Assembly: GCA_030867685.1 (NCBI GenBank)
Contig: JAQOWU010000003.1
Span: 1,054,001 to 1,118,000 of the forward strand
Reading direction: 5' to 3'
DNA length: 64,000 nt
Source of the DNA: Wickerhamiella versatilis
Taxonomy: Eukaryota
Position numbers and translations under genes: made by a program. The notes beneath the pieces are model-generated. The model did not search any database, was not told where the DNA came from, and was given only the letters and a program-made list of their open reading frames with translations. Numbering within the stretch: position 1 is the first letter of the stretch; the number at the start of each line of letters is the position of its first letter. Shown here in pieces: positions 7,849-27,964 of this stretch.

Positions 7849-10020
7849 ATGGACTCGTTCGCAGGCCTGGATGGGCTGGCCAAAAGCCAAAGGCCGAAGA
7901 GGATGGCCGACCAGAAGGTAGCTCAGGCACAGGCTAAGAATGTAACATGGTCTGGTCTAGATATCCTAGGTAATGCATCTTCTCAGAACTCGAGCAGTTC
8001 GTCCCTTGGGTCTTCACTTCAGCCGAACCAAGGGCCTAGAGCCCCCTCTGCACCTCAAATGCAGCAAGTAGATGTCAGGAAGCAAGTTAATAGTTCATCA
8101 GAAGCCCCAAAGCCCTCAGGGAGTCTTCTGGATGATTTCGACGAGTTTGTATCAGCTCCTGCAGCTCCTGCAGCACCCTCGGCCCCGGCAGCCAAGCTCA
8201 CGAGGCCTCCAGCCAATGAACCTCTATCTATCTTTGACTCAAAACCGTCAAAATCTGGGGAGGATGCCCAGGCAAAGGCTAGTTTTAGTTTCTACAGAGA
8301 AGAAGAAGCTTCGAAACCTATGCCAGCGCGCCAACCTCCGAAATTTGAGGATAATGCTCCTCCTCGCCCACCCCGGTCGCGCCCAAACACTTATAATGAT
8401 CAAAAGATCGCTCAGATGGTGGACATGGGGTTTGAAGTTCAGGATGCTGAGCGAGCTCTAGATGCAATGGAGGGTAGTGTGCGTGGTGCCGTGAGCTGGC
8501 TTATGGCTGACGCGCAAGGTTTGGAATTACCAACTCCTAAGAGAAATGTGGGCAGGGATGGAGATTTTGGTGAGGTGGCAAGCCAGATTGGAGCTTCGAT
8601 GTTCGCCACTGCAACTAGTCTTTTTAACAAAGGGCGCAAGGAGATCTCTAAAGCGTATAAGGAATGGGAAGGAACCTCTTCCGGTGCTGCAAGTTCTGAT
8701 GGACAGCCTGCATGGATGCGGAATCAGGAAAAATATGAGCGAAGAGCTCGTAGATTAGAACAAGATCAGAGACGTGAGACGAAGCAGCCACAGTTTAGAG
8801 AAACAGGGGAACATCTCAGCGCAGCAAAATCGCCATCTATCGATGCAAGGAGGGCTACAAGTGATGATTCAATGCCCTCCAGGCCGCCGAGACCGGCAAG
8901 GATAAGTCGAGCCCAGATGTTTCGTGAGAAGCAAGCCCAGAGACTTAAGTCATCTCCGTCTCCGTCTCCATCTCCAGCTCCGTCTACAGCTCCAGCTCCA
9001 GCTCCAGCTCCAGCTCAGCCCTCAAACTCAGAGAAATCTAGCTCTCCTGCAGTTGCATCTTCATACAAGGAACCTGAGGTCGATTTGCTGAACCTGACTG
9101 AAACGAACGCGACGCCGACCAGCGTGGCAGGTATCCAGTCAGAGCTTGCTGTGGCAGCCAAGGCAGCAGGACTGAATGCATTCACTCGGGGTGACTATGA
9201 CACTGCAGTTAATGAGTTCAGTGCAGCCCTAAGTGCGGTCCCGTCAGGCCACATCGGCCGTGTTGTGCTGCTGTCAAATCGTGCTGCGGCATTTCTGAAT
9301 GCCGGAGACATGAAAGCGGCTCTTGACGACGCTAATGAAGGCATTGCATCCCTTCCTGATAAAGGCCAGGGAATTAATTTTGAAGGAAAGGACATGAAGG
9401 ATATTTGGGTCAAGTTGGTTACGAGGCAAGGCCAGGCTGCCGAGAATCTTGAACGATTTAGTCTTGCACTTGATGCGTACAAGCTATTGCTAGATAATGG
9501 CTATGCAACTGCTAAAATACTTGAGGCTAAACGGAGATGCCAGCAGGCTCTTGATCCTGATATCGACAAAAAGGCGACAAAGCCAGATAAACCGAAACCG
9601 AGGCGCCGAGGCTGGGGTACCACGGGTGCTGAACCGACTACTGCGGCAGGAAAGGCTGCACTTGAGAAGGTGCGTCGGGAGCACCGTGCTGAAGCCCAGG
9701 ATGATGCAGAGCGAGACCGACTTCGTGAGGTGGTTTCGACTCGTGTGGAGAACTGGAAAGCGGGTAAGGAAGAGAACTTACGAGCATTACTAGCGAGTCT
9801 TCATGAGGTCCTATGGGCTAATAGTGGGTGGCTACCGGTTAATATGACAGACTTGGTAGTGCCGAAGAAAGTAAGACTTAGTTATATGAAGGCGATTGCC
9901 AAAACCCACCCAGATAAGGTGCCTTCCACGGCGCCGATGGAGGTAAAGTTGATTTCTCAATCGGTTTTTGTGGTCATTCAAAGCGCCTGGGAAAAATTTC
10001 GTACCGAAAATGGACTCTAA
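7849..10020 (+). CDS. SWA2: Auxilin-like clathrin uncoating factor (UBA, TPR, J domain)
   Basis: UBA (QMVDMGF), TPR (LLSNRAAAF) and C-terminal J-like domain (NLRALLASL...AIAKTHPDK). Start set at ATG 7849 to avoid overlap with TOA1. Confidence 0.85.
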   Translation: MDSFAGLDGLAKSQRPKRMADQKVAQAQAKNVTWSGLDILGNASSQNSSSSSLGSSLQPNQGPRAPSAPQMQQVDVRKQVNSSSEAPKPSGSLLDDFDEFVSAPAAPAAPSAPAAKLTRPPANEPLSIFDSKPSKSGEDAQAKASFSFYREEEASKPMPARQPPKFEDNAPPRPPRSRPNTYNDQKIAQMVDMGFEVQDAERALDAMEGSVRGAVSWLMADAQGLELPTPKRNVGRDGDFGEVASQIGASMFATATSLFNKGRKEISKAYKEWEGTSSGAASSDGQPAWMRNQEKYERRARRLEQDQRRETKQPQFRETGEHLSAAKSPSIDARRATSDDSMPSRPPRPARISRAQMFREKQAQRLKSSPSPSPSPAPSTAPAPAPAPAQPSNSEKSSSPAVASSYKEPEVDLLNLTETNATPTSVAGIQSELAVAAKAAGLNAFTRGDYDTAVNEFSAALSAVPSGHIGRVVLLSNRAAAFLNAGDMKAALDDANEGIASLPDKGQGINFEGKDMKDIWVKLVTRQGQAAENLERFSLALDAYKLLLDNGYATAKILEAKRRCQQALDPDIDKKATKPDKPKPRRRGWGTTGAEPTTAAGKAALEKVRREHRAEAQDDAERDRLREVVSTRVENWKAGKEENLRALLASLHEVLWANSGWLPVNMTDLVVPKKVRLSYMKAIAKTHPDKVPSTAPMEVKLISQSVFVVIQSAWEKFRTENGL
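8950..9015 (+). repeat. Coding hexamer repeat (TCTCCG/GCTCCA)n encoding a PS/PA linker in SWA2
   Basis: tctccgtctccgtctccatctccagct...ccagctccagctccagctccagct is visible directly; bounds approximate. Confidence 0.7.
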
Positions 10021-11756: not shown

Positions 11757-12192
11757 ATCCCCCCTGTTTCTGACCATATATAGGGACAGAAATGTGGGAT
11801 TATCATGAGATGGTTAGAATGATAATAACTTGAGTGGATACGGCAGCCTTGCATTTTGGCCAAGAGAATCTATGAGTTGACAGGAATTGCCAGCAAACAA
11901 ATTATTTTTTGGGGGAAAGTTGCCGTTTTTTTGCCAATGGAACATTTCAATTTGCGTTGGACTTCGAGGTAACGCCACACCCGTGAAAAGTCTGATATAT
12001 GTATCGTGGAAAAACATGGCATCCTTGTCCCTATTTATCAATATAAGCATTGAGACTATTCACGGTAGGTGCTACTTTTAGGTGAGATCGCAATTTATTC
12101 CTTGTACTACGTCAGTGTACCCATAAATCGTTGCTCCTGCATAAATGACACATTCTCGCATATACTTAACTAATCGGGATGAATTTACGAGC

Positions 12193-12200
12193 TATATAAA
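12193..12200 (+). promoter_or_regulatory. TATA box of THI4
   Basis: TATATAAA 48 nt upstream of the THI4 ATG. Confidence 0.6.
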
Positions 12201-12239
12201 GGGCCCGTTACCCACATTGCTTATTTCACAGAACATTAA

Positions 12240-13190
<951 letters not shown>

Positions 13191-13309
13191 CCATAACAAC
13201 ACTTCACGCAATACCTTCGTTTTAAGGAAGCGCACTCAGCCCTTAGGGCTTAGCAGCATGAAGGTAAGTATATATGAAAAACTAACAGAAACAGAGAAAA
13301 GGAAATCTT

Positions 13310-13386
13310 CCACAGCGGGTGCCCCTTCAGGGCTGAGATTATACCGTTTGCACTCGATCAAATTCGTATTTGCGAGAGGATTGTGG
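13310..13386 (+). ncRNA. TPP riboswitch aptamer 1 (THI4 3' region)
   Basis: P1 CCACA/TGTGG; P2 GCGG/CCGT; GGTGC; P3 GCCC/GGGC; CTGAGA; ATAC; P4 CTC/GAG; GATC; P5 CAAAT/ATTTG; GCG...GGA. All core TPP aptamer elements are present in the correct order. Confidence 0.88.
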
Positions 13387-13412
13387 GTGATCTAGATTAG
13401 TTTTCATTTTAT

Positions 13413-13494
13413 GGTCACGGCGGGTGCCTTGTAACGAGGCTGAGAGTATACCGTTTGCACTCGATCAAGTTCATGCTTGCGTGAGGACGCGACC
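13413..13494 (+). ncRNA. TPP riboswitch aptamer 2 (tandem copy)
   Basis: P1 GGTCACG/CGCGACC (6 of 7 pairs); GCGGGTGC; P3 GCCTTG/CGAGGC; CTGAGA; ATACCGT; P4 CTC/GAG; GATC; P5 CAAG-TTCAT-GCTTG; GCGTGAGGA. Confidence 0.9.
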
Positions 13495-13908
13495 CAATTA
13501 GAATTAGTTACTATCTTTAAAATACCTGTTCAGGGTTATGTGCAGGCGACGGTCTCCTGTGTCCTTAGAGAGGGTCTTTGTATTGCCCAAATATACACAA
13601 GGACAATGATCTGGGATTTGATTTGCACTACGCAAAGGAAACGAAGGTCGATTATTGGGTACAGGGAGTCGAAGTCGAGCGGTCTTAGAATTATTACTTG
13701 TTTATTGAAAGACACCCATATATTCCAGTACAATCAATAAATTTGCATCTTTGAGCAAATAAATTTTACCTGCCCAGAAATAGAAAGGTGGAAACTGCTT
13801 AATCCGTATGAAAATAGGGCCACCGAGCTTAGTACATAATACGACAATGACGTATGTGTGTCTGCAAGTTTAGTTAGCTATCTCGCTTAGTTAATCTGCG
13901 CATTGCAC

Positions 13909-14266
13909 ATGTCTGTCTCAAGTGCGGACTTGATGCCAACCAATATACCTGGTTCTGTCTTAGCAGCACTTCAGAAAGATTACTACATTTCTCCCTGCGG
14001 TAATCGTGTTGATGCGTTGCCTAAAGGTGCAAGTGCTTATTGTTGTGAAGACGGATCGTCTCGTATGCTAGAGCCAATTAATGAAAACGAACATGTAAAG
14101 TGTAGCAATGGTGAAGGTGGAAAAAAACTTTCTTGACGTTGGAGATATTTTGTGCTCTACAGAGGTTGAATTCAGTGAGGATGGCGTGAAAACATCATTT
14201 AAGGCTGAGAGGCTCATCGATGAAGCTCCACCATTACTTTCGGAGGTAGCACGGAAATTCTTATAA
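13909..14266 (+). pseudogene. Frameshifted paralogue of the adjacent Cys-rich orphan gene
   Basis: Aligns with 14520-14909 over its length. One extra A in the A7 run (14121-14127) causes TGA at 14134-14136, while the homologous frame continues (DVGDILCSTEVEFSEDG...PPLLSEVARKFL) to TAA 14264-14266. Confidence 0.7.
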
Positions 14267-14519
14267 TTCTTAACATCAGATACGTGTGGCTGAGGGTCAA
14301 ATTATGATTGCATAGAGATCAAATGACTTACGTGTTTAACATATTGACTCTCATAATGTGTACTAGGCGATAATTGTAATTTTTAGTGTTTAATATCAAT
14401 GCGTCGTTACATTACAAGTAGTTATGAGGCTGATAATTCAAGTCTAACACAGAATACACCAATGACGTATGTACCTGTAAGGTTAGTCAATTATCTTGCT
14501 TACTTAGTGCAGTTAGCAC

Positions 14520-14909
14520 ATGTCTATCTCAAGCATAATCGCAAATTCAACCAATACGCCTACTACCAGTTTAGCAACTTCGAGTGGCCCAGCTATAATA
14601 GAGTTTCATCCAGCTCCGTCTGGTTACTACAATACTGGTTGTGGAGATCACGCTTATGCGGTGCCTCATGGTGTGGTTACTTACTGTTGTGAAAATGGAG
14701 TATCCCATATACTATCGCCATTTGGTGCGAATGAACATCCGAAGTGTAGTAATGGTGAAGGTGGCAAGAACTTTCTTAGCGTTGGTGATGTGCTATGTAC
14801 AACTGAAGTTGAATTTAATGAGGATGGCTTGAAAACATCATTTAAGGCTTATAGGCTCATCGATGAGACCCCACCATTACTATCTGATGTGGTAAAGGGA
14901 CTGATATGA
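14520..14909 (+). CDS. Small Cys-containing orphan protein (129 aa), tandem-duplicated
   Basis: Codon-wise conservation with the upstream copy (YCCE.G.S..L.P...NEH.KCSNGEGGK) supports coding status. Confidence 0.7.
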   Translation: MSISSIIANSTNTPTTSLATSSGPAIIEFHPAPSGYYNTGCGDHAYAVPHGVVTYCCENGVSHILSPFGANEHPKCSNGEGGKNFLSVGDVLCTTEVEFNEDGLKTSFKAYRLIDETPPLLSDVVKGLI

Positions 14910-15448
14910 TGTAGATTTGTATCACCGCAAAAAAGAATAATGATTGCAGAGAGTTCAGCTAATTTATGCCAGAAATATATGGACTCTCTTGATGTACTTT
15001 GATTCTATATAGCCAATATTACTGTATATTAATGTTACAAGGCCCTGCCAAGTTTTCAATTCAGATAAAGGTCTTTGCATTGCATTGTCCAACCCTTACA
15101 AACTTTAAATGACCAGGATGCATAGCATGTAGAATACAAATCTTGGTTCTGATGGAAAAATTGGAAGCTAATTCGATAACTTGTATTACCGGAGCCCTCT
15201 CTGGGTGAAAACTGGCTACTCAAGGTACCCGGTTCAACTCAAGTTAGCAGTTCTTTCATTCCCAGCTTGATGCACAAACTAGGCGTTTAGATACGGTCTA
15301 CATCAGATCTTTTCTATAGCACTTTCCTGATTCGGTTTATCGTGTTTAAGCGATGTGAATATGGCAATATCCCGAATGTGGAAAGAATAAGAATGGTGTG
15401 GGACAAAAGAACCAGCCCTAGAGTGGTCTATAGACGTAGTTTACACAA

Positions 15449-15868
15449 ATGATAGATGCACTAGTGCACCTTCTTGAAGTTACGTCTTCTACCAAGGACC
15501 CGCAGATGGTCAACTGGTTTGAGACAGTGCACTGTGGAGTATGCGGCCGCTTCACTCTACGTCCGTATTTTTTTGGTTGTTGCGATCCTGGTAACAGCTC
15601 ACCACATACATTTTGTGGTGAGTGTCTGCAAGTGCATCTCACGTCACAGGGACCTCAGTGCCCAAGTTGCCATACAAAAATTATATTACAGCCAGAATCT
15701 CTGACTTTTCGAGGATGGGCCGGTGCGATTCTCGGCCTACTCTACGTAAAAATGCCATCTGAAGCTGAAAAGATTGAAGGGGAAGCTACTGACCGGGAAA
15801 AATCTGATAATGACAATCTATTCAGCGACTTCTTTTCCACTGTGGGCCGTGCCTGTGTTATTCATTGA
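15449..15868 (+). CDS. Small RING-finger-like protein
   Basis: CGVC...CC...HTFCGEC...CPSC spacing fits a RING-HC domain. Confidence 0.6.
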   Translation: MIDALVHLLEVTSSTKDPQMVNWFETVHCGVCGRFTLRPYFFGCCDPGNSSPHTFCGECLQVHLTSQGPQCPSCHTKIILQPESLTFRGWAGAILGLLYVKMPSEAEKIEGEATDREKSDNDNLFSDFFSTVGRACVIH

Positions 15869-27880: not shown

Positions 27881-27964
27881 TGCCACCTAGCGGAATTGAA
27901 CCACTGACCTTTGCATGACTTCGTAAGTACAAGTGCAACGTTCTACCACTGAACTAAGGATGGC
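27881..27964 (-). tRNA. tRNA-Thr(UGU) with an 11-nt intron (27917-27927)
   Basis: Reverse complement: GCCATCCT TA GTTC AGTGGTA GAAC G TTGCA CT TGT A [CTTACGAAGTC] A TGCAA AGGTC AGTGG TTCAATT CCGCT AGGTGGC A. A T7 Pol III terminator follows at 27865-27871. Confidence 0.92.

Follow-up and report, generated by a model that had tools for sequence, protein, structure and literature searches.

The flank of a thiamine thiazole synthase (THI4) gene raises the question with which this analysis is concerned. Within the 64-kb stretch of DNA that we analysed (hereafter the window), the stop codon of this gene is followed by two sequences resembling thiamine pyrophosphate (TPP) riboswitch aptamers, and the original prediction held that a short segment lying between the stop codon and the first of them can fold either as its own hairpin or onto aptamer 1. 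We ask whether this segment is a working switching arm of the riboswitch, or whether its match to the aptamer has another origin.

Tandem TPP aptamers downstream of THI4

The genes and aptamers on which the argument depends are as follows.

Upstream of THI4, opposite strand: TFB1, with BSD and PH_TFIIH domains
12249-13190, forward strand: THI4 coding sequence in a single exon, stop codon TAG at 13188-13190 (ORF 12240-13190)
13305-13398, forward strand: TPP aptamer 1 (RF00059, 60.4 bits, E 2.3e-09)
13410-13504, forward strand: TPP aptamer 2 (RF00059, 67.0 bits, E 5.5e-11)
13909-14136 and 14517-14909: two tandem small Cys-containing paralogous ORFs without a Pfam family

Compared with solved structures, the THI4 product is best matched by that of N. 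crassa (3jsk, E 4.5e-126), followed by that of S. cerevisiae (3fpz, 8.3e-108), and 2746 homologues were found at E<=1e-50. Among the best 120 of these 2746, the nearest relatives are P0001, P0002 and P0003, at 98, 88 and 89% identity, respectively, and the named relatives, at 70-77% identity, belong to Nadsonia, Sugiyamaella, Dipodascopsis, Lipomyces, Blastobotrys, Limtongia and several Pezizomycotina. On protein sequence, the host of this THI4 gene is a fungus, probably a yeast of an early-branching lineage.

Both aptamer matches score above the RF00059 gathering score of 54.3 and cover the model completely (1-105). Aligned to the RF00059 consensus, each contains the CUGAGA and ACC...GAUC...GCG...GGA core, each has P3a deleted, and a non-canonical pair is found in P3 of aptamer 1 and another in P1 of aptamer 2. 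By covariance model, both elements are TPP riboswitch aptamers, for which TPP binding is predicted. Aptamer 1 starts 115 nt past the THI4 stop codon on the same strand; its P3 is formed by 13321-13324 and 13330-13333, and the 3' strand of its P1 is 13382-13386. The aptamers are 88% identical over a 50-nt core at a spacing of 107 nt, with a linker of 11 nt (13399-13409) between the two Rfam matches, and their sequences identify the pair as a local tandem duplication. An Rfam search of 12000-15500, with the threshold relaxed to E<=10, revealed no TPP match beyond these two, and we therefore rejected the idea of a decayed third aptamer beneath 13235-13253. An exact 19-nt string from the aptamer core was found only twice in a scan of genome contigs (L001 and L002, both contigs of Verrucomicrobia MAGs); these loci have no Rfam matches, so we rejected them as TPP riboswitches and regard them as chance matches.

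We judged it unlikely that the aptamers are the 5' UTR of a downstream gene, because the common homology of the two paralogous ORFs starts only at about 13830, well past the aptamers. Relative to ORF 14517-14909, ORF 13909-14136 has a one-base frameshift in a run of A. Elsewhere in the window, a tRNA gene (27881-27963, minus strand; Rfam, 45.8 bits) has a 13-nt insertion after the anticodon-loop position that fits an intron.

Complementarity of the flank to aptamer 1

13235-13243, forward strand: CTCAGCCCT, the segment in question, exact complement of 13329-13337
13235-13253, forward strand: near-palindrome CTCAGCCCTTAGGGCTTAG, able to form a local hairpin and a direct near-copy of P3 and CUGAG of aptamer 1

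We checked the coordinates and letters of the predicted pairing and found them correct: CTCAGCCCT is the exact reverse complement, over 9 nt, of AGGGCTGAG at 13329-13337, which is the 3' strand of P3 together with the universally conserved CUGAG of aptamer 1 (target strand AGGGCUGAG). The proposed extension, AGGG at 13245-13248 on CCCT at 13323-13326, agrees with the letters, as does the 7-nt match to aptamer 2, in which GGCTGAG recurs at 13438-13444. Taken together, the inverted arms 13235-13248 and 13324-13337 are 86% complementary over 14 nt. The alternative hairpin, AGCCC-UUA-GGGCU, is likewise borne out by the letters: the arms 13235-13243 and 13245-13253 form a near-palindrome (89%), and 13235-13253 folds at -6.9 kcal/mol. 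The near-palindrome occurs once in the 64-kb window at up to 3 mismatches, and on this single occurrence we rejected the idea that it is a repeated DNA motif.

As a control for chance, we made dinucleotide shuffles of the 114-nt flank 13191-13304. Perfect complements of at least 9 nt to aptamer 1 were found in 71/5000 shuffles, to either aptamer in 159/5000, and to 13326-13340, a target picked after seeing the data, in 2/5000. The RNAduplex energy of the flank with P3a+J (13319-13339) is -26.0 kcal/mol, compared with -15.4 ± 2.8 kcal/mol for shuffles, two of 2000 reaching the real value; this is the sole outlier of six aptamer sub-targets, the other five being reached by 135 to 1732 of the 2000. 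For whole aptamers, the duplex energy of the flank is reached by 6/1000 shuffles with aptamer 1 and by 354/1000 with aptamer 2. The flank also holds ten complementary 7-mers where 1.23 are expected (one of 3000 shuffles, and 54 of 126505 genomic windows, reach ten) and five complementary 8-mers where 0.32 are expected (5/3000 shuffles). When 114-nt windows are instead taken from both strands of the 64-kb window, 7241 of 126505 (5.7%) contain one or more 9-mers that are complements of sequence in the two aptamers. Since the flank has a higher AT content than the genome, 140 of 738 genomic windows also attain the duplex energy of the full flank with aptamer 1. The match exceeds chance for a flank of this composition; the 9-mer by itself is indecisive.

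Other elements of the flank

Besides the segment, the flank and the sequence beyond it contain further elements that may take part in switching or processing.

13202-13211, forward strand: arm against the P5'/P4' 3' strand of aptamer 2 (13477-13486), with a perfect 8-mer, 13204-13211 on 13477-13484
13212-13220, forward strand: UACCUUCGU, pairing with the GTAAGT region AUGAAGGUA (13258-13266) to give stem-loop 13212-13266, which masks GTAAGT
13255-13262, forward strand: AGCATGAA, perfect complement of loop L5/P5' of aptamer 2 (13470-13477), two nt before GTAAGT
13264-13269, forward strand: GTAAGT, a consensus-like 5' splice site by motif only, the sole GT[AG]NGT in 13100-13382
13266-13304, forward strand: A-rich stretch with TATATA (13269-13274) and ACTAAC (13281-13286) followed by AG; loop of the predicted long-range helix
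13736-13763, forward strand: two AATAAA (at 13736 and 13758), candidate distal poly(A) signals by motif only

The perfect 8-mers at 13204-13211 and 13255-13262 are directed at 17 consecutive nt of aptamer 2, 13470-13486 (L5-P5'-P4'), and are separated by a 43-nt insert that bears the hairpin. Given that aptamer 2 is matched by these separate flank 8-mers of its own, the suggestion that the two aptamers are served by different arms is a fair reading. The arm 13202-13211 forms 9-10 bp in the minimum free energy (MFE) structure, and does so too when aptamer 1 is folded but aptamer 2 is not. The stem-loop 13212-13266 is present in every structure in which aptamer 1 is enforced.

The stretch 13266-13304, with TATATA and ACTAAC, we take to be a candidate poly(A) or branch-point region, on the assumption that these motifs have the meanings that they have in yeast. 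ACTAAC at 13281 is the sole one within 13100-14200 and lies 17 nt past GTAAGT, which is too close for an ordinary intron; we consequently rejected an intron running from GTAAGT to ACTAAC-AG (13264-13288). A crude intron screen of the window gave six candidates, of 36-183 nt, without a clear rule. Two further complementarities were observed in this region. AAAACTAA (13278-13285), which overlaps ACTAAC, is perfectly complementary to TTAGTTTT (13397-13404) in the inter-aptamer linker, and the last codons of THI4 (13177-13186) are 90% complementary, over 10 nt, to the P1 5' strand of aptamer 1 (13306-13315).

Predicted folding of the flank and the aptamers

In the ligand-free ensemble that ViennaRNA predicts for 13191-13520, the nine pairs of the long-range helix between the segment and aptamer 1 have probabilities of 0.91-0.95, compared with about 0.05 each for the local hairpin and for aptamer 1's own P3. 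Of five sequence contexts, four have the helix in their MFE structure, and in the remaining one a structure with the helix comes to within 0.2 kcal/mol of the MFE. In the MFE structure it continues through 13246-13249 / 13321-13324 and 13260-13265 / 13305-13310, closing a 39-nt A-rich loop with TATATA and ACTAAC that is predicted to be more open without ligand, in agreement with the claim that the pairing would loop out the poly(A) region. The mean unpaired probability of 13275-13304 is 0.81 in the ligand-free state versus 0.53 with the aptamers enforced, and ACTAAC and the CACAG of P1 are likewise predicted to be more open in the ligand-free state. GTAAGT itself is unpaired with a probability of 0.50 ligand-free versus 0.24-0.33 with the aptamers folded; this does not agree with a donor that is simply released when TPP is high, as in the plant type.

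We also computed constrained folds and folds of the growing transcript. Enforcing aptamer 1 costs 4.3-8.2 kcal/mol in these models, which binding of the ligand could cover; for both aptamers the cost is 9.5-13.7 kcal/mol. Several alternative states lie 4-8 kcal/mol from the MFE. As the transcript grows, the hairpin, held within the stem-loop 13212-13266, is predicted to dominate (0.91-0.97) until 13337 is out, whereupon the long-range helix takes over (0.99); at transcript ends 13411-13417 the two are near balance. To reach the fused helix from two preformed hairpins by the direct path, the RNA would have to cross a predicted barrier of about 12-13 kcal/mol, and switching may therefore be slow.

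The prediction of mutually exclusive folds that disable aptamer 1 thus divides into two parts. The folds are indeed exclusive and close in predicted energy, but shuffled flanks are predicted to disable the aptamers similarly. Among 400 shuffled flanks, the MFE was -78.9 ± 3.4 kcal/mol, compared with -81.2 for the real sequence, and 80 reached the real value; the energy gap between the free and aptamer-containing states was reached by 136 and the number of flank-aptamer pairs by 78. Because these values are reached so often, the predicted disabling of the aptamers is generic, and because shuffled flanks disrupt the aptamers about equally often in MFE predictions, the argument from folding energy is weak. 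We accordingly rejected MFE-level significance as evidence. Near-total loss of both aptamers together, a measure picked after seeing the data, was found with one of the 400 shuffled flanks. The fold of 13230-13342 has a z-score of -1.24, and 21/200 shuffles fold equally well.

Origin of the segment and alternative explanations

Given that the segment is a near-direct copy of P3 and CUGAG, its origin by duplication is a live rival: 13235-13253 would be a decayed partial copy of that part of the aptamer, and its match would need no function. Descent can explain the GCCC/GGGC part of the pairing, because a copied hairpin is automatically complementary to the hairpin from which it was copied. Consistent with this, 13240-13253 is a direct repeat of 13324-13337 at 79%; the direct local alignment, CCCTT-AGGGCTTAG with CCCTTCAGGGCTGAG, has the same score as the complementary one and is reached by 34/1000 shuffles, against 41/1000 for the complementary one; the AGCG upstream of the element aligns by eye with the AGCG before P3; and the aptamers have themselves been duplicated locally. 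Against it stand the lack of a third TPP match noted above, a spacing of 84 nt instead of 105-107, and the CUCA of the segment, which has no counterpart in the aptamer, where GGGU occupies the corresponding position. Four of the nine pairs, those of CUCA with UGAG, accordingly lie outside the part that a duplication of P3 would explain, and CUCA matches the UGAG of the aptamer perfectly, where the segment's own arm, UUAG, leaves a C-U mismatch. We take this as a hint, at the level of sequence, of selection for the long-range partner. We consider a mere relic somewhat unlikely, and a relic origin would be compatible with a present function.

A different possibility is that the element is simply the tip of the GTAAGT-masking stem-loop, that its match to aptamer 1 is incidental, and that switching operates through P4-P5 of aptamer 2. 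The stem-loop is indeed stable as predicted (-18.8 kcal/mol for 13208-13270, z -2.07, equalled by 6/200 shuffles), the state with both aptamer 2 8-mers paired and the hairpin intact has an energy of -77.7 against the MFE of -81.2, and P4-P5 is the switching strand established in fungi and plants, as far as the portion of PMC3597705 that we consulted describes them. The energy of the flank with aptamer 2 is, however, ordinary, both for the whole aptamer and for the P4-P5 3' strand (135/2000 shuffles), and it is the complementarity to P3a that is unusual; we regard this explanation as rather improbable. Plain coincidence, in which a GC-rich 9-mer has neither structural nor evolutionary meaning, could appeal to the frequency of such 9-mers in genomic windows, to the recurrence of AGGGCTGAG at 9014 on the minus strand and to the insignificance of the MFE-level controls. 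It is at odds with the composition-matched tests for aptamer 1 (71/5000, 2/2000 and 6/1000), with the presence of several more perfect aptamer complements in the flank, and with the identity of the matched strand, which is the one whose pairing would most surely abolish ligand binding. We hold it to be decidedly unlikely.

Relatives of the locus were sought through translations. P0122, found by translating 13213-13392 (spurious ORFs), represents a relative that is about 98% identical and is available as a protein translation only; it has the same residues across both arms and, in the A-rich loop, one extra base. At so low a divergence, this identity over the arms is uninformative. A phmmer search of the full library with P0122 found P0124 and also matched P0123, an unrelated repeat protein; P0124 used as query matched itself alone, and these translation searches with P0122 to P0124 yielded no diverged relative in which the upstream arm is covered. 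P0124 represents a more diverged relative and spans two aptamers at a spacing of about 99 nt, its first repeat resembling aptamer 1 (..CERIV) and its second matching aptamer 2 (QVH.CVR.). Although amino acids cannot prove nucleotides, the residues of P0124 would allow GCCC/GGGC in P3 of aptamer 1, and also a CUAAC some 19 nt ahead of P1. The duplication of the aptamers appears, from these sequences, to be older than the split from P0124, both copies having been kept one-to-one, and this apparent retention in the P0124 relative suggests that the locus is under selection.

A possible switching mechanism

From the composition-matched complementarity and the predicted folds, we consider it plausible, and partly supported, that the pairing of segment 13235-13243 is a working switching arm of the tandem TPP riboswitch; we put the probability of this prediction at roughly 40%. 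On the switching-arm reading, the segment would be one arm of an expression platform located past the THI4 stop codon. The P3-mimic hairpin 13235-13253 would be the first fold of the segment in the nascent transcript and would cap the stem-loop 13212-13266, which also holds GTAAGT. When TPP is absent, CUGAG of aptamer 1 would be free and could nucleate on CUCA, and the two hairpins would fuse into a long imperfect helix, 13235-13265 / 13305-13337, which would consume P1-5', P2-5' and P3 of aptamer 1, so that TPP could not bind it, and would display TATATA and ACTAAC in an open 39-nt loop. With TPP, CUGAG and P3 would be locked in the aptamer and the flank would keep its local stem-loop, leaving the A-rich region and the CACAG of P1 less accessible.

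What this analysis shows directly comprises the sequences and aptamers, the complementarity with its statistics, and the energies as predicted; formation of the helix in vivo, use of the motifs and the direction of regulation are inferences. The ligand-free fold would favour proximal 3'-end formation and give a short, productive THI4 mRNA, and the TPP-bound fold would lead, by the logic of plant THIC, to read-through or alternative processing, a long 3' UTR bearing the aptamers, and lower expression.

A wider hypothesis can be built on this scheme, which we think doubtful in its entirety. The locus would be a conserved two-aptamer riboswitch in the THI4 3' UTR of a budding-yeast-like fungus, with an evolutionary origin independent of that of plant THIC, each aptamer having its own arm in the shared flank: the P3-mimic would invade the pyrimidine-sensor helix of aptamer 1, and a split anti-P4/P5 around the donor would capture aptamer 2, so that two inputs would jointly decide between polyadenylation at the proximal site and unproductive processing.

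Comparison with known TPP riboswitches

The TPP riboswitch in the 3' UTR of plant THIC, reportedly the subject of work by Wachter and by Bocobza in 2007, resembles this locus in several respects. In both, the aptamer lies past the stop codon of a thiamine-biosynthesis gene (here THI4), and the stretch separating that codon from the aptamer contains a 5' splice-site-like GTAAGT and a candidate processing signal; in both, too, flank sequence adjoining the donor complements P4-P5, in our case that of aptamer 2. Unlike plant THIC, the present locus is fungal, belongs to THI4 and has tandem aptamers, its segment 13235-13243 targets P3/CUGAG, and no usable intron can be defined. Bacterial tandem TPP aptamers are complete riboswitches, each with its own terminator; as in these and in Saprolegnia NMT1, two similar TPP aptamers here stand in a row as a result of duplication, but, unlike the bacterial tandems, the THI4 aptamers share one upstream flank.

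In eukaryotic TPP riboswitches, as described in the part of Li & Breaker 2013 (PMC3597705) on which we draw throughout, a strand of the aptamer pairs alternatively with a flank near splice sites. Two switching strands, P4-P5 and the 5' portion of P1, were known before that work, which added the 3' shoulder of P1; the strands described there are P4-P5 (NMT1, THI4, THIC), the 5' part of P1 (Chlamydomonas) and the P1 3' shoulder (NCU01977), and P3/J3-2 is absent from them. Our segment pairs with P3-3'/J3-2 (13329-13337), and so belongs neither with the P4-P5 pairing of NMT1/THIC-type platforms nor, since its target is not the P1 3' strand (13382-13386), with the alpha' pairing of the NCU01977 type. 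It is nevertheless like the alpha-alpha' pairing of N. crassa NCU01977 in that a ligand-free long-range helix joins an aptamer strand to an upstream element near, but not overlapping, a 5' splice site, and in that the sequence between the two is looped out by this helix, which cannot coexist with bound TPP, here as predicted (PMC3597705). In NCU01977, alpha' is the P1 3' shoulder, the distance is about 530 nt, the helix lies in an intron of the coding region, and covariation and mutants have been reported (PMC3597705); unlike this, the helix considered here targets P3-3'/J3-2 at 85 nt, lies past the stop codon, and is a prediction from sequence.

The locus also shares with the 5'-UTR intron riboswitches of N. 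crassa NMT1 and THI4 a fungal TPP aptamer and flank complementarity near the donor; those riboswitches are upstream of the ORF and act through splice forms that retain a uORF (PMC3597705, PMC5997356, in the parts consulted). The part of the supplementary table of Mukherjee 2018 (PMC5882874) covered here assigns every THI4 riboswitch to a 5' UTR or an intron, and two TPP aptamers are noted, within the portion of that article consulted, just in Saprolegnia NMT1, in a 5'-UTR intron, with the mechanism given as unknown. According to the section of Donovan 2018 (PMC5997356) that we used, Brettanomyces has orphan TPP riboswitches with no obvious ORF, within 1.5 kb of a thiamine biosynthesis gene; like these, the present riboswitch is a yeast element outside an obvious ORF and close to a thiamine gene. 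Brettanomyces is not among the named proteins noted in the best 120 of 2746 THI4 matches, from which we conclude that the locus probably belongs to another lineage. We found no description of tandem TPP aptamers past the stop codon of a fungal gene in the literature searched; an earlier description elsewhere is possible.

The locus is small, at about 330 nt. The known riboswitch mechanisms of eukaryotes are few, and an arm that attacks P3/CUGAG would, if the prediction is true and validated, be a further kind. If it is true, a fungal 3' UTR with two aptamers on one platform would mean that plant-like control of 3'-end formation arose independently.
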